NCBI GenBank assembly: GCA_963733375.1
Contig: CAVTDB010000013.1
Span: 64,001-128,000, forward strand
Origin: Nitrospirota bacterium
Lineage (GTDB): Bacteria; Nitrospirota; JACRHJ01
Length of the DNA stretch: 64,000 nt
Reading direction: 5' to 3'
The notes under the pieces are model-generated. The model saw only the letters and a list, made by a program, of their open reading frames with translations. It was not told the DNA's origin and ran no database searches. Below are positions 676-34,105 of the stretch, piece by piece; positions within the stretch are counted from its first letter, which is position 1, and each line of letters opens with the position of its first letter. The translations under genes and the position numbers were made by a program.

Positions 676-1592
676 ACCGCATGCATAAAGAAAACGGAGA
701 CCGCAAAATTCCCGCCGGAAGGAGTATCTGCCATAGCCTGGAGTGGAACAATCCTGAAACCCGGCATCGCCCCGGCCGCGGCTTTAGCCTCGCTTGCGGG
801 CATGTCGCTTGCCGCCAGGGGCCTGCCGTACACGCAGGCGTCGATAACGACCCTTTTCTGCGTCGTGTCGGCGGTATGCGGCTCAGGGCTTTTAAACGTC
901 CTGCTGGAGGAGAAGACGGACGCCCTGATGCCCAGGTGCGCCGCCCGGGGCCGGGCCCTGGACAGAGATCGGCAGAAAAAACGCGGCGATATTGGCCGCA
1001 GTTCTCATCAGCGCTTCCCTGGCCGTATCGTGGCTGGCCGTAAACAGGACCGTCTCCTTGATAATCGCCGCCGCGGTATTTTTGTATGCGGTCTTCTATA
1101 CCCTCTATTTAAAAAAGAATTCCCCGTTCGGGACAGTGCTTGGGGCCATCCCCGGTGCGCTCCCGGTGCTGGCGGGATACGCGTCGGTGGACGCAAAATC
1201 GGCCCGGCGGGCTGGATATTGTTCCTCGTTATGTTAGTCTGGCAGCCGCCGCACTTCCTTGCGCTCTCACTGAAATACCGGGATGAGTATGAGGCCGCCG
1301 GTTTTCCGGCGATGCCCGTGCGCCTGGGGGAGCGCTACGCCAAGGCGTCGTTATTCATGTACGCCACCGCGCTCCTGCCTTTGACGCTCTCTTTGGCGTG
1401 GTTCGGCTACTGCACGGTCTGGTTCGGCCTGGCGGCATTTGTCGCGGGGATTTTATTCCTTTTCCTCATATGGTCGTCCGTGATGAAAAAGCGGGAATTC
1501 GGAAGGGCTTTTTAATTTCCATCATGTATATCGCGGTGGTCCTGCTGGCCCTGGTCATAGACCAGAAATTCGGCCTTGAACGCCGCATTTGA
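672..1592 (+). CDS. ctaB: Protoheme IX farnesyltransferase (heme O synthase), frameshifted
   Basis: Fragments YTLYLKK..GAIPGALPVLAGY and WQPPHFLALSLKYRDEY spread across several frames. Confidence 0.8.
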
Positions 1593-1618
1593 CAGGGAAA
1601 CGCCTTTTCTGCTAAACT
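1589..1618 (+). promoter_or_regulatory. Putative sigma70 promoter
   Basis: TTGACA-N18-TAAACT with extended -10 TG. Confidence 0.45.
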
Positions 1619-1907
1619 AAAATGAGAAAAATACAATTCTTTACCAAAGAAGACTTTAGAGTAATATCCAATTAAGAACCTTCCACCAGTAGTCCGATGA
1701 AGTCCATAAAGAAATCGGGTCTTAAAAACCTGCTTAAACGCTAATTACAATTGATATGTCTTGCAGCGCGCCCCTGTGGAGCGGCTCCACAAGGGCGTCT
1801 GGGAAGCCGGGGACGGACAAACCATACAGAGACTTGTGCCGACACCCGAAGGTAAAATGCCCTTCCCGGCTTCCATGCCTGTGTCATCCGCGAACGGGGT
1901 CGAAACC

Positions 1908-3059
1908 ATGCGCGTAGTAATGTTCTATCACTCGATCGTCTCGGACTGGAACCACACGAACGCGCATTTCCTCCGGGGAGTGGTGACGGAGATGACGGCG
2001 CGCGGGCACGACGTGACGGTCTTCGAACCGAAGGACGGCTGGAGCAGACAGAGCCTTATGACGGAGCATGGCCGCGAGGCGCTTCGGAAGTTCCGGCGTG
2101 CGTACCCTCATATCAGTTACAGCTATTACAACACGGATAATATCAACCTCGACCTGGCGCTGGACGGCGCGGAACTGGTGATGGTCCACGAGTGGAACGA
2201 AAGGGCGCTGGTGTCGAAAATCGGGGAGCACCGGAAAAAGAGGGGGCGATATAAGCTCCTTTTCCACGACGCGCACCGCCGCGCCCTGGCCTCCACGGAT
2301 TCCATGTCCGGATATGACCTCTCCGGCTACGACGGCGTCCTTGCATATGGCGCGGCAATCCGCGATATCTATCTCTCGCGCGGCTGGGCCAGGGATGCAT
2401 GGGTGTGGCACGAAGCCGCGGACGTGCGGGTTTTCAGGCCGTTAAACGACAAGGAGCCCTGGGGAGACGTGGTCTTTATAGGAAACTGGGGCGAGGAGGG
2501 GCGGCTGGCCGGGATAATGGAGTTCCTGGTCGAGCCGGTGAAGGCGCTGGGCCTTAAGGCGCGGGTCTATGGGGCTGGCTACCCGGAAGAGGCGCAGAGG
2601 GAGTTTAAAAAGGCCGGGATAGAATATGGCGGCTGGCTTCCGAACTTCGAGGTGCCGCAGGTACTCTCACGCTATAAATTAACGGTACACATCCCCGAAA
2701 GGCCATACTCCGAGGCCCTGGCCGGAATACCCGCGATAGAACATTTTGAGGCCCTGGCCTGCGGCATCCCCCTATCTCGGCCCCCTGGAACGATGACGAA
2801 GGGCTTTTTGCCGAGGGGCGGGATTATCTTTGCGCAAAAGACGGCAAGGAGATGGCGGGGCTGATGGCGGAGCTGACAGCCGACGCGCAGTCTCAGGGAG
2901 AGGCTTTCAGAGCATGGGCTGATGACCGTCCTGACGTGGCATACGTGCGGACACAGGGTAAACGAGCTGATGGATGTGCTGATTAAGGTCTCAGGGGCAT
3001 GCAAGGTATCGAGGGGGAAAAAGGTCTCGAGAGAAAAAAAGCTGGCGGGCGCGCGGTAA
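1908..3059 (+). CDS. CgeB-family glycosyltransferase, frameshifted near 3' end
   Basis: MRVVMFYHSIVSDWNH..AHFLRG, WHEAADVRVF, FEALACGIP; C-terminal HTCGHRV in another frame. Confidence 0.75.
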
Positions 3060-3088
3060 GCCGGCCGGGAAATACGACGGGGGGGGAA

Positions 3089-4174
3089 ATGCGCATCGTA
3101 ATACTCGGTCTTTCCATAACTTCTTCCTGGGGCAACGGCCATGCCAACACCTATCGGGGCCTGGTGCGGGAGCTTTCCGCCTTTGGCCATGACGTCCTCT
3201 TCCTTGAGCGGGACATGCCGTGGTTCGCCCAGAACCGCGACCTCCCGGAGCCGCCGTACTGCCGGACCTATCTCTATAACGGCATACCCGAACTGAAGAA
3301 AAAGTTTACTGAGGATATAAGGGACGCGGACTGCGTCATCGTCGGCTCATGCGTGCCGGAAGGCGAGAAGGTGGGCGACCTCGTGACATCCAGGGCGCAG
3401 GGAGTGACGGCATTTTACGATATGGACGCCCCCGTCACACTCTCGTATCTGCAAAAAAATAAATGCAGCTACTTAACCCGCAAACAGGTAAGGAGTTACT
3501 GCCTCTACCTCTCCTCTACCTCCGGCCCGACCCTTGAAAGGATAGAGCGGGAGTTCGGCTCGCCTATGGCGCGCCCCCTTTTACTGTCTTCGGACCCGGA
3601 TAACTACTACCCGGAATGCGGCCAGCCCACATGGGACCTGGGGTATCTGGGGACGTACAGCCATGACCGCCAGACAGACCTTGAAGAACTGATGCTGAAG
3701 GCCGCCGGCACGCTCAAAACGAGGTCTTTCGTGGTGGCGGGGCCACGGTACCCGGAAGAGATAATCTGGCCGTTCAACGTGCAGAGGATAGAGCACCTGC
3801 CGCCGGATATGCACAGGAAGTTCTACAACCAGCAGAGGTTCACCCTTAACGTCACCCGCTCCGACATGAAAAAGGCGGGCTACTCCCCGTCCGCGCGCCT
3901 TTTCGAGGCGGCGGCCTGCGGCACGCCGATTATAAGCGACCTGTGGGAAGGCTTAAGCGATATCTTTGAGCCTGGAAGAGAGGTGCTTGTCTCGCGCTCG
4001 GCGGAGGAGACGATGGACTACCTGCTTTACCTGCCCGAGAGTGAAAGGGTAACGATGGGGATCCGGGCCAGGGAGCGTGTTTTAAGCTCTCATACCGCCG
4101 TACACAGGGCGGCCGAGCTTGAAAAATATATCAAACAGGCGGCATATGCGGGAGAATATCAAAAGGCGGGATAA
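3089..4174 (+). CDS. CgeB-family glycosyltransferase
   Basis: MRIVILGLSITSSWGNGHA, SARLFEAAACGTPIISD. Confidence 0.8.
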   Translation: MRIVILGLSITSSWGNGHANTYRGLVRELSAFGHDVLFLERDMPWFAQNRDLPEPPYCRTYLYNGIPELKKKFTEDIRDADCVIVGSCVPEGEKVGDLVTSRAQGVTAFYDMDAPVTLSYLQKNKCSYLTRKQVRSYCLYLSSTSGPTLERIEREFGSPMARPLLLSSDPDNYYPECGQPTWDLGYLGTYSHDRQTDLEELMLKAAGTLKTRSFVVAGPRYPEEIIWPFNVQRIEHLPPDMHRKFYNQQRFTLNVTRSDMKKAGYSPSARLFEAAACGTPIISDLWEGLSDIFEPGREVLVSRSAEETMDYLLYLPESERVTMGIRARERVLSSHTAVHRAAELEKYIKQAAYAGEYQKAG

Positions 4175-4605
4175 ACCGACCGGACTCCGCCTTCTTTTTA
4201 AGCTCCCTCAGCATCGTTGCGGTAACTTTGCGTATCCTGGCCGCCGGCAGCATCATCAAGAACGGCCTCAGGCCGGCGAACCTCTCCCTGCTTACGACCT
4301 GCACGGCTCCGCCCAGGTCCGTAAACAGAAACTCGTGCTTTGCGGATACCCCGAATTTCCTGGCCGACCAGACCACCTGGTCGTGCGGCACCACGCACTC
4401 GACCAGGGGCTTTATCGAAAACGGCAGCGCGTAAAGTCTTATTTTAAGCGACAGCCTCTGCCCCTCGGAAATGAAATAACAGACCCTCCGGTCTCGCGGC
4501 CTCCTTCATGGAATGGTTCCACTGGTTCCAGCACGCAAGGTCGGTGAAGATGTCCCAGACGCGGTCCATCCCGGAGAATATAGTCACGGATTCGACTATT
4601 TCCAT
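4131..4605 (-). CDS. SRPBCC/polyketide cyclase-like protein, frameshifted
   Basis: Hand translation MEIVESVTIFSGMDRVWDIFTDLACWNQWN joins QVVWSARKFGVSAKHEFLF..RERFAG. Confidence 0.6.
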
Positions 4606-4617
4606 CGGGTAATTATA

Positions 4618-6587
4618 TCACACCCGGACCGGCATCAGCATGATGGGTATGCCCTGGTTGTAGAAGTAGCGCTGGACCGCGAAGATGGTGTAGTTGTGGA
4701 GCATCCCGGTGAATATGTTGGGGTTCGGGAAAACTAACTGTCCGCCGAAGAAGGTGACGTTCGGGAAGCGTTCGAGTATTTTTGGGGAGACCTTCGATAT
4801 CTCGCCTACGACGTCCGTGCCGAACGAGGAGTAGCCCTCCGCGTAAAGGCCATGCGTCCGGGCCAGCTTCACGTATTTGTCCAGGTCTTCGTTTACCTTC
4901 TTCTTGAGGGCCTCCAGCTCTTCCGCGCCCTTGAAAGTGCCCGCGTCCACTATGCCCACTTCGATAAACACGAAGTTCTTGAACGTCCCTCCGAACTGGC
5001 GGATGACGTTTAAGAACGTGTGCAGCCCCAGGCCGTTATATCCGCTGACCAGGATAATCGCCGTCTTCGCCCTGGGGTCGGCGGCTGGCGCGTTGCCCGC
5101 CGTCTTCGCCGGGGCCTCATGGATACTGTACCCCGCCGCCTCGACAAGCGAGTCCAGCCTGGCTAAGGAGCTTGGCGGTATTTAGGTAATGCCTTTTTAT
5201 CAGTAACGCCATGCCTATCAGTACCCCTGTTATGACTATCGTTATCCAGCCGCCTTCCGTGAATTTCAGTATGACGACCGAGACGAGTATGAAGGAGGTC
5301 AGGGAAAGTCCCAGCCCGTTTATGAAAAGCTTTTTCCTCCAGTGCTCAGCAACGCCGCGCTCGATCCACCAGTGCCGCACCATGCCGAGCTGGGACAGTG
5401 AAAACGTTATGAAGACGTTTATGGAGTAGAGCACCACGAGAAAACCCACCGAGCCCCTGGTAATCACCATCATCAGGAAGGCGACCAGCCCCATTATGAA
5501 TATGCCCTTCTGGGTGACGAGCCTGTCGGAAAACGTCGCGAACTTGGTCGGGAACCAGCGGTCGAGCGCCATGTTCGCCAGGACCCTCGGCCCGTCCAGG
5601 AAGCCCGCCTGGGCCGCGACCAGGAGCAGTATCGCCTCCGAGACCAGGGTAACGATCAGCAGGACGTATCCCCCGGTGCCCCAGCCTTTCGTGACCGACT
5701 CGTACAGCACGGCGTTCAGGGTCTTGCCATGTACGGGGTGAACGCCGTAGAGCAGGTAGGCGACCATCAGGCCCACGACCATGAACGAAAGCGAAAAGGC
5801 CATGTACCGCATGGTATGTTTGCCCGTCTTCACCTTCGGCTCGCGTAGGATGGGCAGGCCGTTACTGACGGCCTCGATGCCGGTAAAGGTGCCCGCGCCC
5901 ATGCTGTACGCCCTGAGGATCAAGAAAATCATCCCGAAAGTCCCGAGGGCCGACCGGGTACTATGCACGTCCGCCCTCGTCGCGGCCATCATTGCCGGGA
6001 AATGCCCGGAGTTGGCCGCCACCGCATAGACGATGAAAAAGATGTGGGTCAGGAGGAAGACCATGAACAGGGGCACGAGCGGGAGGACCGATTCCTTGAC
6101 GCCCCGCATGTTCATTACCGTCATGCAAAGCAGCGCAAAAAAGGCGAAATAGAGCTTGTACGGAAGCCATGCCGCCGGCAGGAAACTGAAGATGGAGTCC
6201 GCGCCGGCGGCTATGGAGATGGTGATGGTCAGGACGTAGTCTATCAGCAGCGCGCAGCCGGAAACCATGCCCGCTTTCGGGGAGAGGAGCTTGCTCGCCA
6301 CCAGGTATCCGCCGCCGCCGGTCGGGAAAAGCTCTATTATCTGCGAGTAGCTGGTGCTGATTATGAATACGGTAACGCCGGAGGCGATGGCGACGAAGAG
6401 CGCCAGGTGCGGGTGGCTCTAAGAGGGCGAGGAAGGCCTCCTCGGGGCCGTAAGAGGAGGAGGACAGCCCGTCCGCGCCGAGGCCCACCCAGGCGAAGAA
6501 GGCGATAAGCGAGACGTTGTGGAAGACGTGCGGGTCGTAAATGTCGCGCGCGCCGCCGATGACAACCTTCTTTAGCCAGCCGAACAT
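4618..6587 (-). CDS. kimA: APC-family permease, KimA/YdaO-like K+ transporter (frameshifted into 3 ORFs)
   Basis: GADGLSSSSYGPEE, LLIDYVLT, TFTGIEAVSNG motifs; cytosolic C-terminal domain; upstream c-di-AMP riboswitch. Confidence 0.7.
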
Positions 6588-6607
6588 GTGGATTATTATA
6601 ACTCCTG

Positions 6608-6640
6608 AAAAAGAAAGCCGCCGGCAAGACCGGTGGCTTT
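6608..6640 (-). terminator. Intrinsic terminator, expression platform of riboswitch
   Basis: Minus strand AAAGCCACCGG-TCTTG-CCGGCGGCTTT-CTTTTT. Confidence 0.75.
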
Positions 6641-6667
6641 TGGCTGCTGCCCGGGGTTGCTCTCCAA

Positions 6668-6820
6668 ATGCCTGCGAGGTTAGCTGCCGGGCTCAGGCTT
6701 GATAGTACCTTATCCCTTAGAAAGAGCCCGATAAACCGGGCAGCTTGAAAAAGGGAATTCGCCCCGTAAACTTTGGGTCCCCCGCATCCTTCCGGGTTTG
6801 CCCGGAAGAATTTCGGCCGC
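6668..6820 (-). ncRNA. c-di-AMP (ydaO/yuaA) riboswitch
   Basis: Minus strand GCCGAAATTC..GGATGCGGGGGACCC..GGGGCGAATTCCC..GGGATAAGG..CCTGAGCCCGGCAGCTAACCTCGCAGGCAT matches the family consensus; upstream of a ydaO-like gene. Confidence 0.9.
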
Positions 6821-6913
6821 AATTATTTAAAAACGGGATTAAAATAGTCCTGTTTTTATACGTTGTCAAGAATTTTTATAAAGAGCGACGCCTGATGAAT
6901 TTTTCGGAAAATG

Positions 6914-6942
6914 TTGACTATCGCGGCTATTAAAAATAGAAT
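6914..6942 (+). promoter_or_regulatory. sigma70 promoter of trmFO (probably leaderless)
   Basis: TTGACT-N17-TAGAAT, 8 nt before ATG. Confidence 0.55.
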
Positions 6943-6950
6943 GTCTTAAT

Positions 6951-8263
6951 ATGACTGAGAAAATATTGACTGTAATCGGCGGCGGGCTTGCCGGGTCGGA
7001 GGCGGCCTGGGCCGCGGCCAGACGCGGGATAAAGGTGCGGCTTTTCGAGATGCGGCCCGGGACCATGACCCCGGCGCACAAGACGGGGCATCTGGCGGAG
7101 CTGGTATGCTCAAACTCGCTAAGGTCCCTGGACCTGCATAACGCGGTCGGCCTTCTAAAGGAAGAGATGCGGAGCCTCGGCTCGCTCGTTATGGAGGCGG
7201 CGGACAGGACTGCCGTCCCCGCCGGTAGCGCCCTTGCCGTGGACCGGGAGGCCTTCGGCAGATATATAACCGACGCAATCCTTGGCCATCCCGGTATAGA
7301 GGTAATCAGGCAGGAGATAGCCCAGGTCCCGGAGCCTGTCTCGGTAATCGCCACGGGTCCTCTGACGTCCGACAAGATGGCGGACGCAATAGGCCGCGCT
7401 TACCGGGACGGAGCACCTGCATTTCTATGACGCCATCGCGCCCATAATCGACGCCGATTCCGTTGATATGGATATTGCCTTTCGTGCCTCGCGCTACGGC
7501 AAGGGCGGGGACGACTACGTCAACTGCCCGATGACAAAGGAGCAGTACGACGCCTTTTACGACGCGCTCTCTACAGCCGAGAAGGCCCCGGTGCGCGAGT
7601 TCGAGAACATGCGCTGCTTCGAGGGCTGCATGCCCATAGAGACGATGGCGGAGCGCGGCCGGGAGACGCTGGCGCACGGCCCGATGAAGCCGGTGGGGAT
7701 TACAGACCCTAAAACGGGCGGACGGCCTTACGCGGTCGTCCAGCTGCGGGCCGAGGACGCGGAGCGGACGGCGTATAATATCGTCGGTTTCCAGACCCGG
7801 CTTAAATGGCCAGAACAGGCAAGGGTATTCAGGATGATACCGGGGCTTCAAAACGTGAAATTTATAAGGTACGGGAGCCTGCACCGGAACACGTTCATAA
7901 ACGGCCCATTGTTCCTTGAGCCTACCCTTGAGATGAAGGGGCGGCCGGGTCTTTTCTTCGCCGGGCAGGTATCGGGCGTGGAAGGGTACGTCGAGTCCTC
8001 CGCGATGGGCATACTCGCGGGTATTAACGCGGCGCGTCTTATAAAAGGGCTGGCCCTGGTGACTCCGCCGGAGACGACGGCGCACGGGGCGCTTATCACG
8101 CACCTGACCAAGACGGAGCCCGGCCGCTTCCAGCCGACGAACGTGATTTTTTCCCTTTTCCCGCCGCTCGACGTGAAGGTGAAGAAAAAAGAGGAGCGGC
8201 GTGAGCTGTTGGTGAAAAGGGCGCTTAGCGGATCTGGAAGCGTGGAAGAACAACCTGGACTGA
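6951..8263 (+). CDS. trmFO: Folate-dependent tRNA U54 methyltransferase TrmFO (frameshifts near 7410 and 8228)
   Basis: [41 protein letters not shown]; true stop TGA 8261-8263. Confidence 0.92.
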
Positions 8264-8280
8264 TTCCGGGAGGTTTACAA

Positions 8281-9708
8281 ATGTTTGAAGAACTCGATGA
8301 ACTAAAAAAACACCTGGACAGCCTGCGCCCGATAGACGCGGACAAGATGGCGGCCATGCAGGAAAAGCTTAAAATAGATTGGACATACAACAGCAACGCA
8401 ATAGAAGGAAACAAGCTGTCTTTGCAGGAAAAGGCATTCTTTTTGAGGGAAGGTCTTACCTAGAAGGGAAAACGACTCTCGGAATTTCTGGAAGCAAAGG
8501 ACCATGTCGAGGCCATTTCGTTCCTGGAAGAGGTAGTACAGGAAAAGAAGCCTTTAACAGAAAGGCTGATAAAAGATTTACACGCAATAGTTATGCAGGA
8601 CAACAAGTATGTATGGATAGGCTCGCCCGAAAATAGGATAAAGAAAAGGATTGAATCTGGAAATTACAAGTACGACAACAACGATGTGGTGAAACTCGGC
8701 GGCACCATACATTATTACAAGGACTATTTGCAGGTTCAGGGAGAGATGGAGGCCTTGATAAAATGGTATCAGGAAAACAAAGTTCATAGGGTAGAGCTGG
8801 CGGCCAGGCTCGACGATAAGCTAGTGGCAATACATCCTTTTACGGAAGGTAATGGGCGAGTGTAGAGGCTAGTTATGAACATGATATTGATGCAGGAAGG
8901 CTATGAACGAGCAATAATACGAAACGAAGACAAGATGGAATACTAACAGGCGTTGGACCTCGCGGACAAGGGCGACTACGGTACTTTTATTGCAATAGTC
9001 GAGAGGGAAGATTACAGGACGATGAAGATGGTCATAGACGTAATAGAAGGCAGTGAGGCATTAGGAAAAGAAGATCTGAAACGCATGATAGAAGGTTTTT
9101 AGGAGGAAGTTACAAAACTGGATAAGGATATTGGTGTTATATCTAAGAATGTTGATGATAATATTAGAAAGAAAAACATAGAAAATATTTTATCTTATTT
9201 AGAGGAAACTGCTAAAGGCATAATAGATGAAAACGCAACTAAAGAAAGGATTTTTTTTATAGAATCTCGTAATAATTAGAAATAGTTGGTTGAATCATTT
9301 CTTACACTTTTTTGTTTAAATCAAAATATAAAACAGATATGGTGGGAGAAAGAATCATGGGAAGATAAAGGTCATTTTAAGTGTACAATAGAAGAAGGTT
9401 GCGGTTTTATGATAGTTTTGTAGAGCAGAAGAATGTATATACGCTCCTCGACGCTCCTTTTTGGAGTAATTCCTCGAAAGTATAAATGTATTTTAGTTGC
9501 TTTTTCAAAAGTATCAGGTTTTTTAAGTGACAGTGAGAGTGAGATTATTGGCAAAGATATAAAAGAAAAACACATTGAATTGGGGAATGTTTGGGGTGAT
9601 TATGATAAAAAAGTTCTCGAAGAATTTTTCGTCGATGTGTTTAAAACTTTTATTAAAACTATAAAAAAAGAAATAGAAATAAGAAGGCATATAGCATCAA
9701 ATGACTGA
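8281..9708 (+). pseudogene. Class II Fic-domain protein with C-terminal extension; single frame, 7 in-frame stops
   Basis: [11 protein letters not shown] inhibitory motif and IHPFTEGNGRV*R; stops at 8461, 8863, 8944, 9100, 9277, 9283, 9421. Confidence 0.85.
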
Positions 9709-10603
9709 TTATCTTTCAGAGTTCTTGAACTACCTGCGCTACGAGAGAGGCGCGTCGGAGAACACCGTCGTCAGCTATGAGAACGACCTCCGGCAGTTCG
9801 TCCTTCACCTGAAAGGTTCGGGCGATGCGGAGCCGGACCTCTTAACGGTGGATAACCTGGACGTGCGGGGGTTTCTCGCGTCTTTGGTGAAGCAGGGACT
9901 TAAAAAATCGTCGGCCCAGAGGAAGCTCGCCGGCATAAGGAGTTTCTACCGCTATCTTTTCCGCGAGGGCTTAATCGAGAAGAACCCGGCGAAGGTCGTG
10001 GCGACGCCAAGGAAGGAAAAATCCCAGCCGTCCGTGCTATCGGTGGACGACGCGGTGATGCTTGTCGAAGCCCCGCGCGGGGATACGCTGGACGGCCTTC
10101 GCGACCGGGCTATACTTGAGATATTCTACTCGGCGGGCGTAAGGATATCGGAGCTTCAGGGTCTTAACCGGGAGCAGGTGGACCTGCCTCAGGGTTTGGC
10201 CAGGGTGACTGGAAAGGGAAATAAGGAGCGGTTCGTGCCGCTTGGGGCGAAGGCGGTTGCCGCTATATCCGCGTATATTTCCGCGTTAGACGCGGAGAAC
10301 AAGGTTGACATCTCGGCCCCGGACGTACCCCTGTTCCTGAACAAGTACAGCCTTCGGCTGTCCGTGCGGGGCGTGCGGCGGGTCGTGATGAAATACGTCG
10401 GCGAAAAACTTATACGGGGTAAGGTCTCGCCGCATACGCTCCGGCATACCTTCGCCACGCACCTGCTCGGAGCGGGCGCGGACCTCCGGTCGATCCAGGA
10501 GATGCTGGGCCATGTGTCGCTCTCCACGACGCAGAAGTACACGCACCTGGACCTGGAGAAGCTGATGAACGTTTACGACAAAGCCCATCCGAGGGCGAAA
10601 TAG
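9701..10603 (+). CDS. xerC: Tyrosine recombinase XerC
   Basis: RDRAILE, GKGNKER, HTLRHTFATHLL, LGHVSLSTTQKY; trmFO-xerC-hslVU synteny. Confidence 0.9.
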   Translation: MTDYLSEFLNYLRYERGASENTVVSYENDLRQFVLHLKGSGDAEPDLLTVDNLDVRGFLASLVKQGLKKSSAQRKLAGIRSFYRYLFREGLIEKNPAKVVATPRKEKSQPSVLSVDDAVMLVEAPRGDTLDGLRDRAILEIFYSAGVRISELQGLNREQVDLPQGLARVTGKGNKERFVPLGAKAVAAISAYISALDAENKVDISAPDVPLFLNKYSLRLSVRGVRRVVMKYVGEKLIRGKVSPHTLRHTFATHLLGAGADLRSIQEMLGHVSLSTTQKYTHLDLEKLMNVYDKAHPRAK

Positions 10604-10608
10604 AACGA

Positions 10609-10702
10609 CCGCTACCTTTTTGGAAAAAGGTAGCACCAAAAACTTTTAGACTTTAACCCCCGCTTTCTTTTGCTACTTTTCTTTCCCGTGAAAGAAAAGT
10701 AG
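10609..10702. repeat. Double-hairpin REPIN/MITE-like repeat, copy A
   Basis: GCTACCTTTTT-GG-AAAAAGGTAGC ... CTACTTTTCTTT-cccgtg-AAAGAAAAGTAG. Confidence 0.85.
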
Positions 10703-10718
10703 AGAAAGGGTTTTTTCT

Positions 10719-11246
10719 ATGATGCACGGAACTACGATATTATGCGTGAGGCGCGACGGTAAGGTCTCCATCGGGGGCGACGGGCAGGTCACGATGGGCG
10801 CGACGGTAATGAAGCACAACGCGCGCAAGGTCCGGAAGCTGTATAATAACACGATACTGGCCGGTTTTGCCGGGGCGACCGCGGACGCGTTCACCCTTAT
10901 CGAGAAGTTCGAGGGCAGGATCGAGGAATACCACGGCAACATAGCGCGCGCGGCGGTCGAGCTCGCCAAGGAATGGCGTACGAACAAGATGCTCCGCCAG
11001 CTGGAGGCCCTGCTGATAGTCGCGGACAAGGAGCATACGTTCATCATCTCCGGCACCGGCGACGTGATAGAGCCGGAAGACGGCATCGCGGCCATAGGCT
11101 CCGGCGGGCCGTTCGCCCAGGCGGCGGCGCAGGCGCTTATTAAGCACTCGTCTCTTGACTCGCAGGGCGTGGTGACGGAGGCCATGGAGATCGCGTCGAA
11201 GATTTGCATATACACGAACTCAAACCTTATTATAGAGGAGCTTTAA
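10719..11246 (+). CDS. hslV: ATP-dependent protease subunit HslV
   Basis: [22 protein letters not shown]. Confidence 0.95.
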
Positions 11247-11249
11247 AAG

Positions 11250-12623
11250 ATGCGGGAGCTGACCCCGAGGGAAGTTGTTGCGGAGCTTGATAAATACATC
11301 ATCGGCCAGAATAACGCGAAACGCGCCGTGGCGATTGCGCTACGCACGAGGTGGCGCAGGATGCTTTTGCCTGAGGAGCTTCGTGACGAAGTCGTGCCGA
11401 AAAATATCATAATGATAGGCTCGACCGGCGTGGGCAAGACGGAGATCGCGAGGCGGCTCGCGAAGCTCGTCGACGCGCCGTTTGTCAAGGTGGAGGCGTC
11501 TAAGTTTACCGAGGTCGGCTATGTCGGGCGAGATGTCGAGTCCATCATCCGCGACATTACCGAGCAGTCCGTCGCGATGGTGCGCTAGGAGCATACCGCC
11601 GCCGTGCGCGAGAAGGCGGAGGCCGCCGCCGAGGAGCGGGTACTGGACGCGCTTCTGCCAAGGCGCAGGGGTGATATCGGCCTCGGGTTCCGCGAGTCTG
11701 GCATTGACTCGACCGGCCAGCCCGCCGAGCCGTTCGAAGCCGACAGCGCGACACGGGAGAAGTTCCGGAAAATGCTCCGGGAGGGCAAGCTGGACGACCG
11801 GACGGTGGAGCTGGAGGTCCGGGAGAAGGGCGGCATGCCGCTTGGCGTCATCTCAAATATCGGCATGGAAGAGCTGGAGATAAGCCTCAAGGAGATGATG
11901 GGCAATATGTTCCCGGAGAAGTCCAAGAGACGGAGCCTGAAAGTCCCGGAGGCGATGAAAGTCCTGACGCAGGAGGAGGCCTCGAAGCTTGTCGATATGG
12001 ACAAGGTGTCCAGGGAGGCGATATCGCGCGTGGAGCAGTCCGGCATCGTGTTCATAGACGAGCTGGACAAGGTCGCCGGCAGAGAGTCCGGCGGCGGGCC
12101 GGACGTATCCCGCGAAGGCGTGCAGAGGGACCTTCTTCCGATTATCGAAGGCTCGACAGTCAACAGCAAGCACGGCGCCGTGCATACGGACCACATACTT
12201 TTTATAGCCGCGGGCGCGTTCCATGTGGCGAAGCCGTCCGACCTCATCCCGGAGCTGCAGGGCCGCTTCCCGATTAGGGTGGAGCTGGACAACCTGACGG
12301 AAGACGATTTCGTCCGGATACTGACGGAGCCGAAAAACGCGCTGATACGGCAGTACGTCGAACTACTCGGCACGGAAGGGCTGGAGATGGAGTTTACGGA
12401 CGACGCTATACGGGAGATAGCGAAGATCGCCGCGTCCGTGAACAGCCGGACGGAGAATATCGGGGCCAGGCGGCTTTATACCGTGATGGAGAAGCTACTC
12501 GAAGAAGTCAGCTTCCACGCCCCGGACGCGACAGAAAAGAAGATAACCGTGAATGCGGAATACGTCCGCGGCCAGTTGATGGATATAACGAAAGACGAGG
12601 ATTTAAGCAGGTTTATTTTGTAA
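11250..12623 (+). CDS. hslU: ATP-dependent protease ATPase HslU (one in-frame TAG at 11586)
   Basis: [40 protein letters not shown]. Confidence 0.93.
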
Positions 12624-12730
12624 AACCGTTACCTTTTTGTAAAAAGGTAACACCAAAAACTTTTGGGCTGAACACCCCCGCTTTCTTTTGTGTTACTTTT
12701 CTTTCCCGCGAAAGAAAAGTAACGGTTTTA
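12621..12730. repeat. Double-hairpin repeat, copy B, with perfect 12-bp terminal inverted repeats
   Basis: TAAAACCGTTAC...GTAACGGTTTTA enclosing both hairpins. Confidence 0.88.
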
Positions 12731-12746
12731 ATCTTTCGAGGACTCT

Positions 12747-13628
12747 ATGAAAAAGCTCATCGAGAAGGCCGACATCCTGATGGAGGCTCTGCCGTACATC
12801 AAGAACTTCTACGGCAAGACTATCGTCATAAAGTACGGCGGACACGCCATGTCGGACGAGGCGCTTAAGAAATCGTTCGCGAAGGACGTGGTGCTGATGA
12901 AATATATCGGCATAAACCCGGTGATCGTACACGGCGGCGGCCCGCAGATATCCCAGACGATGGAACGCATGGGGCTTAAGCCGAAATTCGTTTCAGGTTA
13001 TCGAGTAACGGATTCGGATACGATGGACATAGTCGAGATGGTCCTGGGCGGGGCGATAAATAAAGAGATAGTGAACCTGATAAACTCAAACGGCGGACGC
13101 GCGGCTGGTCTTACCGGCAAGGACGGCGGTCTTATCAAGGCAAAGAAGAAATTTCTTAAGGGCACGTCCGCAGAAACAGGCGCGCCTGAGATAATCGACG
13201 CCGGGCACCTGGGCGAGGTCGAGGCGGTGGACTCCGCAATCCTGGAAGCGCTGGACAAGGGCGGGTTTATCCCGGTCATCGCGCCTATCGGCGTGGGCGA
13301 GAAGGGCGAGACTTATAACATAAACGCAGACTTGGTCGCCGGGGCGGTGGCGGCGGCGCTGTCCGCGGCAAAGCTGATGCTCCTGACCGACGTGGAGGGG
13401 ATACTGGACGCGGACGGGAAGCTGATTTCCACCCTGACCAAAACGAAGGTCGCGGAGCTGATAAAGAAAAAGGTTATTTCCGGCGGCATGCTCCCGAAGG
13501 TCGCGGCATGTTTCGACGCCTTGGGCGGCAAGGTGGGCAAGGTGCATGTCGTGGACGGCCGCGTCCCGCACGCGCTTTTACTTGAGATATTCACCGACAA
13601 GGGCATCGGTACGGAAATATCGCTGTAG
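12747..13628 (+). CDS. argB: Acetylglutamate kinase
   Basis: [29 protein letters not shown]. Confidence 0.95.
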
Positions 13629-13663
13629 TAGGGAAGGTCCTGTAGCGCCGTCCTCTAAGGATG

Positions 13664-14392
13664 CTAGCGGTCGGCATTCCTGTAGCGGCGCGATGTCCCC
13701 TGCCAGAAGGTTTGAGACGAAATTTTTAAGTTCCGCCTGTTCGTCCTCGGCAAGGTGCGAAAATTTAATCGCCATGCCCGGAGGTTGTTATATAGATTAC
13801 GCGGCCCTTCAGGGACAGGCTTTTCCCGCCAATTCTCAGGGTGACTGATACTTCCGTCCCGATGCCGGGAGGCGCGGGTGCGACTACGAAAATACCATGC
13901 TCCGAGATAGTCTGGGCAAGGTAAACCCCCTCCGCTTCTCCATGGCGAACCGTTACCCGCTGGTCGCAATCCGTCCGCAGATGCTTTCTTGCCCATCCCT
14001 GGGGCAGGGCGAGACAAGTCTGCATGGCTTTGTTCAGCTCGCTTAAGTTTACAGGCTTCCGCGAGATAATGCGTATAGCCGAGCGATATGCACGACTTCT
14101 TTAATTTTTCGTGCTCGGGGCCGCTTACTATTACGACCGGAATTTCCGCAAGGGACTTCTCCTGCTTCATCGTGGACAGGTTCTGCGTGCCCTCTGCCGC
14201 CAGCATATCCATGTCAAGCACCATGACGTCCGGCCGGAAAAGCCTCGCAAGGCGCAGGGCCTCGTTCCCGTTTTCGGCGGTGATGACTTGAAGACCCATC
14301 CTTACCAAAAGGACGGTCATAAACCTTACAAAGGTTTTACCGTCGCCCACTACGAGTATCTGTCTTTTAACCTGTCCGGAGATTTGAGCCAT
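13664..14392 (-). CDS. Response regulator receiver + PilZ domain protein, frameshifted; 3' end uncertain
   Basis: REC-like ILVVGD..PDVMVLD; PilZ RKHLR..ISEHGIF..GRVIY..MAIKF in other frames. Confidence 0.7.
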   Translation of the reverse strand: MAQISGQVKRQILVVGDGKTFVRFMTVLLVRMGLQVITAENGNEALRLARLFRPDVMVLDMDMLAAEGTQNLSTMKQEKSLAEIPVVIVSGPEHEKLKKSCISLGYTHYLAEACKLKRAEQSHADLSRPAPGMGKKASADGLRPAGNGSPWRSGGGLPCPDYLGAWYFRSRTRASRHRDGSISHPENWREKPVPEGPRNLYNNLRAWRLNFRTLPRTNRRNLKISSQTFWQGTSRRYRNADR

Positions 14393-14515
14393 GTTTTTCG
14401 CCTCTTGTCTAAAAGTTAATTATATATTAAAAATTTCTATTTATAACGAATAGTTATAAGGTTAATGAAAATTAATGATAGCGTTAAAATAAAATATTTA
14501 TTTCGCCCGCCTCCC

Positions 14516-14544
14516 TTGACATATCGCTTGCCCCCGATTATACT
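14516..14544 (+). promoter_or_regulatory. sigma70 promoter for yqeY-mutS2
   Basis: TTGACA-N17-TATACT. Confidence 0.65.
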
Positions 14545-14622
14545 TCATCGTCAAACTCGAAGACTACTCCGGCTCCTGTAAACTATTTTTCCTGAATATT
14601 CAATTAGATAGCGAGGCTAAAA

Positions 14623-15069
14623 GTGACTCTGAAGGAGCGGCTAAACGCGGATATGAAGGAGGCCCTGAAGGCCCATGACGCAGCTCGCCTGTCCACGATA
14701 AGGATGGTTTTCTCAGCCGTCCGGAATAAGGAGATAGATTCCCGCAAGGATATGGACGACGAAGGTGTGCTCTCAGTGCTTGCGACTTCGGCCAAACAGC
14801 GCAGGGAATCCATAGAGCAGTACGAGAAGGCCGGGCGGCAGGACTTAGTTGACAAGGAGAAGGCGGAGCTGGAAGTAATCCAGTCCTATATGCCCCAGCA
14901 GATGGGCCGCGAGGAGATAGAGGCGCTGGTGAAGGACGCGGTCGCCGAGTCCGGGGCCAAAGGGCCTGGCGACATGGGCAAGGTGATGAAGGTGCTGATG
15001 CCTAAAGTAAAAGGGCGCGCGGACGGCAAACTTGTAAACGAGGTCGTCAAAGAGACGTTAGGGGGATGA
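14623..15069 (+). CDS. yqeY: GatB/YqeY domain protein
   Basis: LKERLNADMKEALKA, KQRRESIEQY, DMGKVMK..GRADGK. Confidence 0.9.
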   Translation: MTLKERLNADMKEALKAHDAARLSTIRMVFSAVRNKEIDSRKDMDDEGVLSVLATSAKQRRESIEQYEKAGRQDLVDKEKAELEVIQSYMPQQMGREEIEALVKDAVAESGAKGPGDMGKVMKVLMPKVKGRADGKLVNEVVKETLGG

Positions 15070-15086
15070 AAATCTTAAGAAAAGGC

Positions 15087-15235
15087 AAAACCGCACTTTT
15101 CTTTGCGGAAAGAAAAGCGCCCAAAAGAAACGAGAGTAACTTCCTTATGGCAGGTCTAACCCCAAAAGGGGGTTTTTTTGTCCGGTTTCTCTTTGCGTTA
15201 CTTTCTCTTTCCCCAAAGAGAAAGTAACGGTTTAA
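15087..15235. repeat. Double-hairpin repeat, copy C
   Basis: CTTTTCTTT-gcgg-AAAGAAAAG ... GTTACTTTCTCTTT-cccc-AAAGAGAAAGTAACGGTTTAA. Confidence 0.8.
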
Positions 15236-17617
15236 ATGAACGAACACGCATTAAAAGTACTCGAGTTTTACAAGGTCTCCGAGGCTGTTTCCACCCGCGC
15301 GGTATCCGGGCCGGGAAGGGCCGAGGCCCTGTCATTCGCCCCATCGTCCGATATAAAAGAAGTCACTCTACGCCTTAAAGAGGCGGACGAGCTGAAAAAA
15401 TATCTCACGTCCCGGCACGAGTTCCCCATACGCGGCCTGAAGGATATATCGGTCCAGCTTAAAAAGGCGGCGGTGGAAGGGGCGGCGCTATCTCCCGAAG
15501 AGCTTTTACGGGTGCTCTCCGTGGCGCGGGCCTCCCGGCTGATGAAGTCCGCGCTCGCGAAAGTAAAGCAGGAATATCCTACCCTAATCAAAAGGGCCGC
15601 GGCCCTCTCGGTCTTTGAAAACATAGAGATGGACATCGCCCGCGCGATAGGCGAGGACTCGGAGGTGCTGGATTCGGCCTCCCCGGAGCTTAAAAGGATA
15701 CGGCACGCGCTGACCCAGGTACGCTCCCGGCTGAACCGCGAATTGGAATCCATCATCCAGGGCCCGTCGTACTCGAAGGCCATTCAGGAGCCGGTGATAA
15801 CCATGCGCGGCGACCGCTACTGACTCCCGCTCAAGACTAATTTCCGCACCTACCTCCAGGGCATAGTCCACGACCACTCGCAGACCGGCTCTACTGTATT
15901 CGTGGAGCCTGCGGCAACGGTTGAGCTTAACAACCGGCTGGTGGGCCTGAGAAACGACGAGGTCCGGGAGATAGAGCGCATCCTCTGGCGGCTCACCGCT
16001 ACCGTCCGGGAGAGTTGCGACCCGCTCGAAGCGTCTTATATGGCGCTCGTAAAGCTCGACGCGCTTTATGCCGTCGCGCAGTTCGCCCTGGATATAGACG
16101 GGAACCTGCCTTCGGTAAACGACAGGGGTTATGTCGAGCTGAAGGACGCACGCCACCCCCTGCTTGTGATGTCCAAGGGCAAGGGCGCGACCGTCCCCCT
16201 GGACATTAAGCTCGGGCGCGAATTCGATACGCTTGTAATCACGGGCCCCAATACCGGCGGAAAGACCGTCGTGTTAAAGACGCTCGGCCTTTTGACCTTG
16301 ATGGCGCAGTCGGGTTTTCTTATCCCTGCCGCGCCGGACTCGGTTATCCCCGTATTCGAAGACGTATATTCGGATATCGGCGACGAGCAGAGCGTGGAGC
16401 AGAATTTAAGCACCTTCTCGTCGCACATGAACCAGATCGTCTCAATGCTGGGCGGCGCCAATCGCAATACGCTGGTACTATTAGACGAGCTTGGAGCGGG
16501 TACGGACCCGTCCGAAGGCTCGGCGCTAGGCGTCGCTATCATCGAGGAGCTTCACCGGCGCGGGACAAAGACCGTGGTCACGACGCACCACGGGGCGCTT
16601 AAGGTCTTTGCGGCGAACACGCCGGGCGTTATGAACGCATCGGTGGAGTTCGACCCGGAGACGCTTCTACCCACATACAGCCTGGCCATCGGAAGGCCGG
16701 GGCGGAGCAGCGCGATACTCGTCGCCTCGCGTCTCGGGATGCCGAAAGGTGTCCTGGAGCGGGCGAAAGAAGGCCGGGCGGCGGGCGAGGCGGAGCTTGA
16801 CACGCTCATCGAGAAGCTGGAAAAAGAGGCGCAGGCCGCGCGTGAGGATAGAAGAAAGGCCGCACAGGAGGCACAAGGCGCGCGTGCGGAAAAGGAACGG
16901 CTTCAGGAACTGGTGCGGCGTGCGGAGGACGAGCGGCGCGAGGCGGTGCAGAAGGCAAAGGAAAAGGCGCAGAACGTCATTAATTCATTGAAGTTCAAGC
17001 TCCGGGAGCTGGAAGACCTGGCGAAGAAAGCCGCCGCGATATCGCCTGAGCGCGCGGAGGTAAAGAAGCACTCGGAAGAGGTGCAGGCGCTTGAAGCGCA
17101 GTTAAAGGACGAGTCGGTCCCGGCGGGTCCTATCAGAAGGCTTGAGATGGAGGCGCTTTCCGTCGGTGACACGGTAAAAGTCTATAAATACAACCGGCTC
17201 GGGCAGGTAATAGAAATAAAAAAAGACAAGAAAAAAGTCGTCGTACAGCTTGGCACGATGCGGGTGACGCTATCGCCTAGCGAGCTTGAGCTGTCCACCC
17301 GCTCCGCACCCGACAGGGCCAGGACGACCGCGTTCACGGTATCGCGGGCCGAGGAAGACGAGGACGAAACGTCCCCCGGCATGGAGTTGAATATCATAGG
17401 CCTACGGGTGGAAGAAGCTATGTCGAAGGTGCAGAAATTTTTGGAAAAGTCCATGCTTTCCGGCCTGGGCAGCGTCCGTATAATCCACGGCCGTGGCACG
17501 GGCGCACTCCGTAAAGCCATCCGGGAAGAACTGACGATTACCCCCGGCGTGAAGGATTTCCACGACGAGGTGTTCGAGCTTGGCGGCGACGCGGTGACGG
17601 TGGTGACGTTTAAATAA
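15236..17617 (+). CDS. mutS2: Endonuclease MutS2 (one in-frame TGA at 15821)
   Basis: ITGPNTGGKT, DELGAGTDP, C-terminal Smr IIHGRGTG. Confidence 0.92.
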
Positions 17618-17644
17618 TGCCGTCTCGGTCATTAGAGTAACGCC

Positions 17645-17683
17645 TCCCCCATCCCCCTCTTAGCCTACGAGGGGGATGGGGGA
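17645..17683. repeat. REP-like GC hairpin
   Basis: TCCCCCATCCCCCTC / GAGGGGGATGGGGGA perfect 15-bp stem, no U tract. Confidence 0.65.
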
Positions 17684-17701
17684 CTTCGGAAAGGATTTTG
17701 G

Positions 17702-18644
17702 ATGTCAAGTGCGATGCCCCTGGTAAGCGTTATAATACCGACATACAACGGCGAAGCCTCTATCCGTGAGGCGGTCGAGAGTGCGCTTTCTCAAACTTTT
17801 ACTGACATGGAAATTATGGTCGTTAACGACGGCTCGACCGACGGCACCGGGAAAAAACTTGAAGATTTGATAACAGATGGTCGAATAAAATACATACCTC
17901 AGATGAACGCAGGGCCGGGGGCTGCGCGGAATACCGGCATAAAAAATACATCGGGAGAGCTTATCGCCCTCTTAGACCACGACGATTTATGGATGCCGGA
18001 AAAGATAGAGAAGCAGGTCCGCTTCATGCGGGAGAATCCGTGGGCGGATGTCGTTTTCAGCGACGGCTATTGCATTGATGAAAAAGGGGGAATGAGCGCG
18101 CGCGAGAGAGAGCGCGCGCCAAGAAAATATTCGGCCCGGCCTGATTTTATAGAGATGTTCGGCCAGGGTCTTAATGCCCTGCCGACCTCGGTCATGTTCA
18201 GGCGGCAAGCAGTTGAACTAGTCGGGGATTTTAAAGAGAATAAACCGGGCGCTTGGTTGTCGGACGATTGGGACATGTGGTTCCGGATGGCGGCAAAAGG
18301 CCTGCGTTTTGCCTTTATTAGTGAACTGCTCTATATAAAAGAGGGGGCACTCGGCGAACTTGACCATGCAAGTACTATCCAGCTCATGCACAAAGGCCCA
18401 TAACGCCTGTAAGAAAATCGGAGAAGATTTCGCCGTGAGGGATTTAGCGCCTATCAGGAAAAGGTTCGCCACGGGACGCTTTGACGCCGCCCGTAAGTTC
18501 ATGTACATGGGCCGCTTCAGGGACGGCCTGGCTTCCGGCATTTGTGCCGCCACGTTTCAGGGAAAATATTATTTTAAATTGCCTGGGCTCATTGTGAGAT
18601 ATTTTAGACTTATGCTTAAAAGAAATTTTAAGATTAATCAATAA
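17702..18644 (+). CDS. Glycosyltransferase family 2, frameshifted near 18340
   Basis: VSVIIPTYN, VNDGSTD, LDHDDLW, DDWDMWFR. Confidence 0.85.
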
Positions 18645-29780: not shown

Positions 29781-29953
29781 CTGCTTTAGAACCCCTCTAC
29801 TCCCCTAACCCATTATAAAACAAGACAGTGAACTCACAATTTTAACACCGGAAGGGGCGTAGCGCAAGAAGATTCAGGGCGGGCGGCCTGCGGGATGCGG
29901 AAACTGTTTTTGAGCGGTATAATTTAAAGTGTACCGTTTTATGGAGGTGCGAT

Positions 29954-30235
29954 ATGAAGTATTACGTGAGGTGGGAAGTCCAGGAGGGCAATGATGCCAA
30001 GGAAGTGATATTAAAACAGCTCGAACATATCGAGAAGTCCGGCAAGATGAAGCACGGCGGGGTGCTCCTGGGCGTCCGGGGCGGCTATTTCATTTTCGAC
30101 ATTGAGAAGCCCTCGGAGCTGCTATACCTGCTCGGAACGGCCATCTTTGATAACTGCCACGTAGAGAGCTATCCGGTGGTTTCATACAAGGAGCTGGGTG
30201 AATTCCTGAAGGAGGACCTGAAGAAGGCGGCTTGA
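29954..30235 (+). CDS. Small hypothetical protein (DUF3303-like)
   Basis: GGAGG RBS; GVRGGYFIFDI..VESYPVV. Confidence 0.6.
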   Translation: MKYYVRWEVQEGNDAKEVILKQLEHIEKSGKMKHGGVLLGVRGGYFIFDIEKPSELLYLLGTAIFDNCHVESYPVVSYKELGEFLKEDLKKAA

Positions 30236-30259
30236 TCGCAGTTTCCAGAGCCGAAGGGC

Positions 30260-30289
30260 TTTACCTGTCCAGAGCGGTAGCGAAGACAG
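30260..30289. repeat. Mini-repeat CTGTCCAGAGCG..GCGAAGACAG, copy 1
   Basis: Near-identical to 40225-40255 and 43663-43694. Confidence 0.75.
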
Positions 30290-30337
30290 AAGGCGAAGAA
30301 ACAAGGCGGCGTAAAAGTTGCCTGTTTCCCGGGCAAC

Positions 30338-30547
30338 ATGCAAAGTGAGGGGCAAATGATGAACATCGACGATTTACATGAACAGATTATGCTTTTTGAG
30401 GAATTGGAAGATTATTTTTCCCGGGTCCATGCAAAGCCTGCGGATGAGGCGCGCAGAAAACAGTTGCTGCAACAGGTAGTCCAACTGAAAGAGAAAGCAA
30501 GCGTGGAATTTCAGGCGCTTAAAGACAAAGAAGAGATAGCGGCTTAA
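30338..30547 (+). CDS. Small helical hypothetical protein (start may be 30356)
   Basis: ORF with GAGGGG RBS and downstream terminator. Confidence 0.5.
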   Translation: MQSEGQMMNIDDLHEQIMLFEELEDYFSRVHAKPADEARRKQLLQQVVQLKEKASVEFQALKDKEEIAA

Positions 30548-30607
30548 AAGGGAATTTCATTCGGCATGGATATGGAAGCGCCCGCAGACAATGCGGGCGT
30601 TTTTTTT
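30539..30607 (+). repeat. Direct repeat R1a: stop codon + intrinsic terminator
   Basis: GCGGCTTAAAAGGGAATTTCATTCGGCATGGATATGG..GCGCCCGCA..TGCGGGCGT-T tract; recurs at 32228. Confidence 0.85.
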
Positions 30608-30703
30608 AATTTAATGTTTCCGCATCCCCCGCATCGTTAAATTCTTGAAAAAGACACATGTATTCTGTTAAAATGAAGCAATCTCTTTTCCCGTAAGGAC
30701 TCA

Positions 30704-31588: not shown

Positions 31589-31594
31589 TGGCGG

Positions 31595-32147
31595 ATGATT
31601 AGCAGGAGAGGTTTTATCAGGGGCTTGCTCGGCGCCGCCCTGTATATCGGGGCGTCAGGGTCTTTTGCGAGTGCCGAGAATGACGCTGGACAAACCATAC
31701 GGATGTACAACACGCACACGCGCGAATCTATCTCCGTGGCCCACAGGGACGCGCGAGGATACATTCCAGAGGCGTTAGATAGGATAAACCACTTCCTGAG
31801 GTGCCACTACAACAACGAGGTGCACCCGATCGACCCCGCCCTTATTGACCTGCTCTGCAAGGTTGACAGAGCAGCACGGCGGCGGGAACGTGCTGCAGGT
31901 GATATCGGGTTACCGCTCCCCGGCGTACAACGCAATCCTTGCGAGCAATTCGTCGGGAGTTGCAAGATCGAGCATGCACATGAAAGGCCAGGCCATCGAC
32001 TTTACAATACCCGGCACACCTAACCGCGACCTCTTCAGGACGGTACGCTCCCTGGAGGCAGGCGGCGCGGGCATATACCCCAAATTCGTGCACATGGACA
32101 CAGGGCGCGTACGCTGCTGGGGCAACGGCGCGCAATCCTATTCGTAA
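31595..32147 (+). CDS. YcbK/MepK (DUF882, peptidase M15) Tat-exported, frameshifted
   Basis: SRRGFI Tat motif; VISGYRSP, SMHMKGQAID, FVHMDTG. Confidence 0.85.
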
Positions 32148-34033: not shown

Positions 34034-34059
34034 GCTAACCTCTTTATCATTCAACTTCC

Positions 34060-34095: not shown

Positions 34096-34105
34096 GTCTG
34101 CTCAC

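Follow-up and report, generated by a model that had tools for sequence, protein, structure and literature searches.

Within the window, a stretch of 64,000 nucleotides (nt) of the Nitrospirota contig CAVTDB010000013.1, a copy of the gene fic lies between trmFO and xerC and is interrupted by seven in-frame stop codons. This copy is a dead member of the Fic/DOC family, a pseudogene, and the otherwise invariant nucleotides which it has lost are nearly all cytosines of its coding strand, replaced mainly by adenine or guanine. The features of the locus are as follows, in coordinates of the window:

8281 to 9708, + strand: fic pseudogene, 475 codons with seven in-frame stops and zero frameshifts, recognised by Pfam and homologue alignment
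8461 to 9423, + strand: range of the in-frame stops, TAG at 8461, 8863, 9100, 9277, 9283 and 9421 and TAA at 8944
8414, 8432, 8738, 8788 and 9004 (C>A), 8683, 8789, 8812, 8815 and 8909 (C>G) and 8656 (C>T), + strand: changed constrained cytosines
8392 to 8412, + strand: SNAIEGN motif, residues 38-44, invariant in 12 homologues
8833 to 8868, + strand: Fic active-site motif, reading HPFTEGNGRV*R, with TAG 8863 inside the motif
6951 to 8262, + strand: trmFO (GIDA family), upstream, with Pfam GIDA matches on two pieces (E-values 1e-33 and 7.5e-57)
9701 to 10603, + strand: xerC (tyrosine recombinase), downstream, with a Pfam Phage_integrase match (E-value 1.7e-38)
8227 to 9700, no strand: strain-specific segment holding the diverged last 12 trmFO codons, a 17-nt spacer with a ribosome-binding site, and fic

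The fic copy is readable on the + strand in a single frame from 8281 to 9708, the alternative frames holding 49 and 35 stops. With its stops read as X, residues 91-203 match the Pfam family Fic (PF02661) at 59.8 bits against a cut-off of 24, and full-length Fic homologues of 477-489 residues are 72, 66, 65 and 58% identical to it. The homologues share a conserved C-terminal domain of about 200 residues to which no Pfam or NCBIfam family is assigned. This domain and the Fic domain are separable, since the fic gene of one metagenome contig (L016:3992-4783) is a 264-residue form which stops after the Fic domain, without the C-terminal one. Among solved structures, the closest to an intact homologue (P0001) are those of the class II Fic protein BT_2513 of Bacteroides thetaiotaomicron (PDB 3CUC; E-value 1e-38, residues 7-231) and of FICD, also named HYPE (E-value 1e-27). 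The family resembles both proteins in its Fic domain, HPFxxGNGR core and SxxxEG motif, but adds the C-terminal domain, and the copy in the window is dead.

SNAIEGN fits the pattern (S/T)xxxE(G/N), which we take to be the inhibitory-helix motif of class II Fic proteins, situated N-terminal to the core. The residue following it, an invariant threonine (Thr45), is replaced by lysine through a change of ACN to AAG at 8413-8415. The active-site motif, of the Fic catalytic form HxFx(D/E)GNGRxxR, is broken by TAG 8863; the invariant alignment columns of this region are H185, F187, T188, G190, N191, G192, R193, V194 and R196, and Asp189, invariant in 12 homologues, is a glutamate in the window. The combination of the HPFxxGNGR core with the N-terminal SNAIEGN places the gene in class II. 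The copy is that of a class-II-like Fic gene of the AMP-transferase family; its recent inactivation forms part of the reading proposed below, which is held with about even confidence.

A previous reading made from the sequence alone (hereafter the sequence-only reading) had located all seven stops, six TAG and one TAA, exactly where they are found, and had derived each of them by a single C>A or C>G step from a sense codon. This derivation is only partly borne out by the orthologues. A serine codon is backed at 8461 (TCG, TCC or TCT in orthologues), at 9100 (TCC or GCG) and partly at 8863 (TCG, ACA or GCC). The ancestor of TAA 8944 is a tyrosine codon (TAT or TAC) which reads TAT in the nearest orthologues with DNA, implying T>A, and 9277, 9283 and 9421 fall in alignment columns that vary among orthologues. 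Six amino-acid departures from the Fic consensus had also been listed, and five of them hold against 12 full-length homologues: EGNTL to EGNKL, QETA to QEKA, HPVE to HRVE, HH to DD and EYY to EY*. The sixth, RLVMNM, was wrong, as the closest homologues (P0001 and P0004) share it. The codons lost by substitution are those for threonine (ACN to AAG, twice), proline (CCN to CGN, AGG, CAG or TCT) and histidine (CAY to GAY, three times), and the proline content of the window copy has fallen to.011, compared with.024-.034 in homologues. Cytosine changes account for at least three stops and have removed conserved proline, histidine, threonine and serine codons.

The specificity of these losses was assessed at constrained sites, defined as first and second codon positions whose nucleotide is invariant in at least six of seven homologues with DNA (337 sites). 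The window differs at 12 of them, and 11 of the 12 changes fall on the 44 constrained cytosines. A single change affects the 120 adenines, and none affects the 84 guanines or the 89 thymines (C, 11/44, versus other bases, 1/293; Fisher test, p = 6e-10). Five of the changed cytosines became adenine, five guanine and one thymine, so that 10 of 11 are transversions, and two of them form a tandem change of CC to AG at 8788-8789. The earlier claim that ordinary decay cannot explain the pattern finds its support here, in 11 of 44 cytosines as opposed to 1 of 293 other bases, with one transition among the 11. At constrained sites the cluster numbers at least 10 substitutions, and in the whole gene probably some 20-35.

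In the flanking genes, sites invariant in five relatives (all codon positions) are changed at 0 of 724 positions in trmFO and 1 of 342 in xerC, a total of 1 in 1066, with cytosines changed at 1 of 294. The statement that both flanks look unaffected is therefore right as regards substitution; it does not extend to frame, as trmFO carries two frameshifts. A second control used amino-acid columns at which four close homologues agree. The window copy departs at 27 such columns, where C>G accounts for 6 and C>A for 4, with 3-4 ambiguous. Among the orthologues treated in the same way, the fic of L014 departs at 12 columns, none of them a clear case of C>G or C>A, and that of L078 shows 40 departures, with two C>A and no C>G. 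Over 13,349 flanking sites, the 168 window-specific changes form a balanced spectrum (C>T 25, A>G 25, G>A 20, T>C 19, C>G 15, G>T 15, C>A 11 and A>C 11). Likewise, the 52,417 nt of the window alignable to the same-genus genome G002 show symmetric differences and no further strand-biased cluster. Both results make an organism-wide mutational habit unlikely.

Over the whole gene the pattern is more mixed. In a codon alignment of the window copy with the seven homologues, a change was called window-specific when three syntenic orthologues agree and the window differs. The 155 such changes comprise C>T 29, G>A 26, C>A 22, A>G 15, G>T 13, T>A 12, A>T 11, C>G 10, A>C 5, T>G 5, T>C 4 and G>C 3. Expressed per conserved base, C>A reaches.143 against.052 for G>T, and C>G reaches.065 against.012 for G>C, whereas the lineages of the three orthologues show.023-.053 (C>A) and.010-.047 (C>G) per conserved cytosine. 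The sequence-only reading had described a gene-bounded, strand-specific C>A/C>G hypermutation. A strand-specific, cytosine-specific and transversion-rich class of changes confined to fic is indeed present, but the whole-gene spectrum contains all types and is led by C>T and G>A. Much of this broader pattern is ordinary divergence combined with a GC content at third codon positions (GC3) lower than that of the orthologues, and most of the whole-gene changes probably predate the loss of gene function. The cytosine transversions depend on sequence context: C>G occurs at 8 of 29 cytosines preceded by C and at 2 of 125 elsewhere, and C>A at 10 of 37 CpG cytosines and at 12 of 117 elsewhere, which speaks against random noise.

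The base composition of fic is A.372, C.131, G.244 and T.254, cytosine falling to.088 in the second half; the flanks hold about.27. Hand counts reported earlier (6 C and 22 G at 9001-9060, 2 C and 12 G at 9121-9180) are exact. Among 23,800 windows of 600 nt covering the genome (2.39 Mb), the fic stretch has both the lowest cytosine content (.087) and the highest GC skew (.455); GC skew is positive on the + strand across the whole region. A low cytosine content is in itself not abnormal, as intact homologues of AT-rich hosts have values of.127-.138. In all orthologues fic is less GC-rich than its flanks (.465-.52 versus about.61), and GC3 is.405 in the window copy versus.56-.69 in the orthologues.

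The genome was also scanned for other C-depleted, stop-rich genes, which yielded seven regions with C or G below 12%. One of them, C16:17874-18911 on the - strand, is an intact open frame. Another, C2:86765-87710 (L164:766-1710), has a cytosine content of.118 and a GC skew of.37 and begins with a 123-codon open frame, after which its best frame holds 15 stops of all three kinds; it has no Pfam match, and another of its frames has about as many stops. It may be another decayed gene and is not clearly the same phenomenon as fic. No clear reading frame was found in C9:27300-27900 or C1:80200-81450, and two open frames of C20 matched no family above the cut-off.

The locus itself is old. Intact fic lies between trmFO and xerC in three other contigs, L016, L014 and L003 (the last identical to L078 in coding sequence), of which L003 belongs to G003, a genome of the same family and another genus, while L016 and L014 are metagenome contigs. 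These syntenic orthologues are 74-79% identical to the window in trmFO, 59-64% in xerC and 58-74% in Fic, and the ATG of xerC overlaps the fic stop (ATGACTGA) in the orthologues as in the window. The shared order of trmFO, fic and xerC identifies Fic as an old resident of the locus and not a recent AT-rich import. A recent transfer from an AT-rich donor was considered and rejected, the closest relatives being syntenic orthologues of GC-rich hosts.

Closer relatives lack the gene. In the same-genus genomes G002 (95-96% nucleotide identity) and G001 (87-94%), the match to the window breaks off after 8226 and resumes at 9701-9722 without fic, and contigs from two metagenome runs (X2, depth 27; X4, depth 16) join 8226 to 9701 through 31 nt encoding a normal trmFO end that overlaps the xerC start. 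The absence of fic from close relatives indicates that the gene is dispensable and is being lost in the genus. At the corresponding junction of G002 (L154, G002:C6), the trmFO end and the xerC start differ from those of G001 and the run contigs. A recombination tract cannot be claimed: the trmFO tail and the first ~15 xerC codons of the window diverge by far more than 4% from G001 and G002, yet these parts vary among all orthologues.

Upstream, trmFO is broken by two 1-base frameshifts, one from an extra base near 7396 and one from another near 8227. The base at 7394-7397 is missing from the contigs of all four runs (X1-X4) and from G001 and G002. Through the second extra base, at about 8227, the final 12 codons of trmFO are read out of frame, and the open frame 7468-8463 runs on into the fic frame as far as TAG 8461. 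This base, too, may be an assembly indel.

The source genome (2.39 Mb in 26 contigs) is 81% complete, and its assembly contains single-base errors. In the 13,349 nt of flank, 11 window-private 1-nt indels occur at exact positions, or about 16 when alignment slips are allowed (roughly one per kilobase), leaving many genes out of frame. The completeness figure may partly reflect these indels. Compared with the two same-genus genomes, the private indels within 1489-16519 are extra bases at 2890, 6419, 6589, 12620, 13665, 14062 and 16186 and missing bases at 2774, 10624, 15231 and 16177, most of them outside homopolymers. Although fic indeed has no net frameshift in 1428 nt, as the sequence-only reading had stressed, this is not significant, as 1.2-1.7 indels would be expected and the probability of none is 0.18-0.30.

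The reading proposed here is that of a real Fic pseudogene bearing a strand-coordinated cluster of cytosine transversions, in which damage to coding-strand cytosines was fixed by translesion synthesis; it is given about as much chance of being right as of being wrong. The base, the strand and the local confinement of the changes point to lesions on one strand copied without a partner for repair. Coding-strand cytosines would have been damaged while the + strand was single-stranded, in one event or in many, most likely through deamination and uracil excision producing abasic sites which lacked a partner strand for repair and which a translesion polymerase then fixed as mutations. Two settings could expose this strand. 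R-loops might form on a gene with the strongest purine and GC skew of the genome, or an unpaired loop might arise as a fic-bearing allele recombined into a fic-less chromosome, the allele prevalent in relatives. A positive GC skew is usually read as marking the exposed lagging-strand template. The + strand is both the non-template strand and the strand of positive GC skew, and the geometry thus fits cytosine lesions on the + strand. Among the mechanisms listed by the sequence-only reading, cytosine loss followed by translesion synthesis fits best. The genome holds two UDG-family genes and two genes of Y-family polymerases, generic enzymes whose presence shows only that such a route is possible. 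One review describes abasic sites at deaminated cytosines giving C-to-A changes in bacteria and C-to-G changes in human cells (PMC10828429).

Several observations weigh against this proposal. The confinement of the changes to fic is partly trivial, given that selection would purge similar changes if they arose in trmFO or xerC. Codon structure (proline CCN, histidine CAY) explains part of the context signal, and the preference for a preceding C loses significance when only constrained sites are counted (5/11 versus 8/33, p =.26). Third codon positions are nearly symmetric, with transversions at 9 of 52 cytosines and 8 of 64 guanines, a comparison judged uninformative owing to saturation and to unequal GC drift among orthologues (GC3.56-.69 versus.405). 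Noise in the assembly is plain to see, with 11-16 single-base indels peculiar to the window over 13.3 kb of flank, and the sequence is present in one assembly only: among 5.8 billion proteins, the 91-residue open frame 9433-9705 was found only on the window's own contig, and no public run holds the gene, 20 of 23 runs holding some of the stretch with a best word share of 0.13 and no RNA run among them. Contigs of the runs X1-X4 do not cover 8297-9693, save for one 274-nt X2 contig of 82% identity which represents another organism's homologue. No cytosine-directed enzyme is tied to the locus, although no search for deaminases or other such enzymes was made. Known bacterial deaminase toxins are reported to yield C:G>T:A transitions and not transversions (PMC7901873).

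The noise of the assembly raises the possibility that the true gene is intact or nearly so and that its cytosines were miscalled as A or G, through modified bases or coverage in one orientation. Such an artefact is judged rather unlikely. It would be in keeping with the 11-16 private indels in 13.3 kb, with both halves of trmFO lying out of frame, with a genome 81% complete in 26 contigs and with the lack of an independent copy; a strain-specific segment may have had lower coverage, and context dependence also fits a systematic error of the base caller. However, no more than one substitution error can be present among the 1066 constrained sites of the flanks, and the visible errors are indels, of which fic has none in 1428 nt, the opposite of a poorly covered patch. 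An error tied to a motif should also strike the flanks, which are GC-rich and full of CC and CpG sites; among their 3287 cytosines, C>A numbers 11 and C>G 15. We know of no platform error that turns a consensus C into G or A. Ordinary pseudogene decay, with the usual GC-to-AT bias and replication-strand skew and no special process, has several points in its favour: in the whole gene, GC-to-AT changes number 90 against 29 AT-to-GC and transitions are common on either strand (C>T 29, G>A 26), the genus can do without the gene, GC skew on the + strand is positive throughout the region, and intact AT-rich homologues are equally C-poor. It was nonetheless rejected as improbable in view of the constrained sites, where no G, no T and 1 of 120 adenines changed against 11 of 44 cytosines, one of the 11 by a transition. 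C>G, normally the rarest substitution class, makes up 5 of the 12 constrained changes and 6 of the 27 amino-acid departures versus 0 of 52 in the controls, and the window-specific spectrum of the flanks is balanced.

Lesions of cytosine and of the guanine opposite cannot be separated from sequence alone, and oxidation or adducts on the template (-) strand would produce G>T and G>C on that strand, equivalent to C>A and C>G on the + strand. The preference of C>G for the 3' C of CC (8/29) corresponds to the 5' G of GG on the opposite strand, a classic hot spot of one-electron guanine oxidation. The strand exposed in transcription, in R-loops and as lagging-strand template would be the + and not the - strand, as judged from gene orientation and GC skew, and we know of no reason for lesions to be limited to one strand of duplex DNA; this origin, too, is held to have little probability. 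Copying through an RNA intermediate would give changes which are likewise gene-bounded and strand-specific, and the six TAG among seven stops could suggest a working gene in which TAG is read as sense, but retro-copying of a diversity-generating kind with a new base specificity, or recoding, is very improbable. The error-prone retro-copying suggested by the sequence-only reading finds no support in the 81%-complete genome, in which absence is not proof: no RVT_1 match was obtained, a blastn search of 8227-9745 gave a best off-target match of 26 nt and none above 38 nt, the only other protein match is 26% identical, and neither a second DNA copy nor a second protein copy was found. Adenine, moreover, changed at 1 of 120 constrained sites. 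TAG as a sense codon was rejected, as the 43 tRNAs include no CTA, TTA or TCA anticodon and thus no suppressor, and TAG terminates 192 of 1170 open reading frames of at least 300 codons. One of the stops is TAA, and invariant residues of the catalytic region are replaced.

The cluster in fic resembles in form kataegis, the APOBEC-type mutation clusters of eukaryotes, which are likewise of kilobase scale, affect cytosines of one strand and include C>G and C>A changes of the kind left by uracil excision and translesion synthesis. The 5'-TC context typical of kataegis is not seen in fic (of the 26 TC sites of the window copy, 6 show C>A, 11 C>T and none C>G), C>G occurring at CC instead, and the host is a bacterium. 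A literature search on kataegis and localized hypermutation brought up no description of such a cluster in a bacterial genome. It is also suggested, with low probability, that fic records a bacterial equivalent of kataegis: a natural burst of transversions limited to the cytosines of one strand over about 1.4 kb of chromosome, struck while that strand lay in an unpaired recombination loop or was displaced in R-loops.

Bacteria do possess enzymes that mutate cytosines in surviving cells, namely the deaminase toxins DddA, SsdA and BaDTF2; SsdA is reported to act on single-stranded DNA and BaDTF2 to prefer pyrimidine tracts (PMC7901873; PMC12494967). The outcome reported is genome-wide C:G>T:A on both strands in ung-deficient cells, and the word 'transversion' does not occur in that paper (PMC7901873). 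The changes in fic differ from this signature in being local, confined to one strand and mainly transversions, with C>T at 1 of the 11 changed constrained cytosines and no constrained guanine altered. The same pair of outcomes, C-to-A and C-to-G, is produced by glycosylase base editors combining a deaminase, Ung and a nickase (PMC10828429). These editors differ from the present case in being engineered, targeted by a guide and restricted to a window of a few bases. Nothing comparable is, to our knowledge, known to act naturally over 1.4 kb. Diversity-generating retroelements share with fic a mutation pattern that is specific to one base and one strand and bounded by a gene segment. Their mutations fall on adenines and depend on a reverse transcriptase and a template repeat. 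The constrained sites of the window copy show no adenine specificity, and neither of the two elements was found in the 81%-complete genome.

In bacterial genomes, clustered substitutions are as a rule put down to recombination, and models of pseudogene decay assume many transitions and no difference between strands. Should fic have been damaged as proposed, single-stranded DNA damage followed by translesion synthesis would leave lasting marks in natural bacterial populations, and its signature could be searched for in many pairs of near-identical genomes. Were the lesions the work of an enzyme, for instance a deaminase or glycosylase, a Fic gene that was incoming or unwanted would have been silenced by mutation. 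Bacteria would then have a new route for disarming genes, and clustered mutations a new source which genome scans now take for recombination. If the pattern is an artefact, it would serve as a warning that a noisy long-read metagenome-assembled genome can yield a clean, indel-free and base-specific false pseudogene.

Besides the segment carrying fic, the window contains further strain-specific islands absent from the 96%-identical genome G002, at 17619-18629, 29938-34251, 37511-38049, 39122-40277, 50294-51309 and 59725-61443. In the islands at 29938-34251 and 50294-51309 the open frames are normal and cytosine is not depleted. Two intergenic elements of ~95-110 nt, at 10608-10701 and 12623-12730, are members of repeat families of which G001 and G002 carry dozens of scattered copies (80-96% identical). 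They have a few short matches in G003 and resemble dispersed repeats of the repetitive extragenic palindromic (REP) or miniature inverted-repeat transposable element (MITE) kind.

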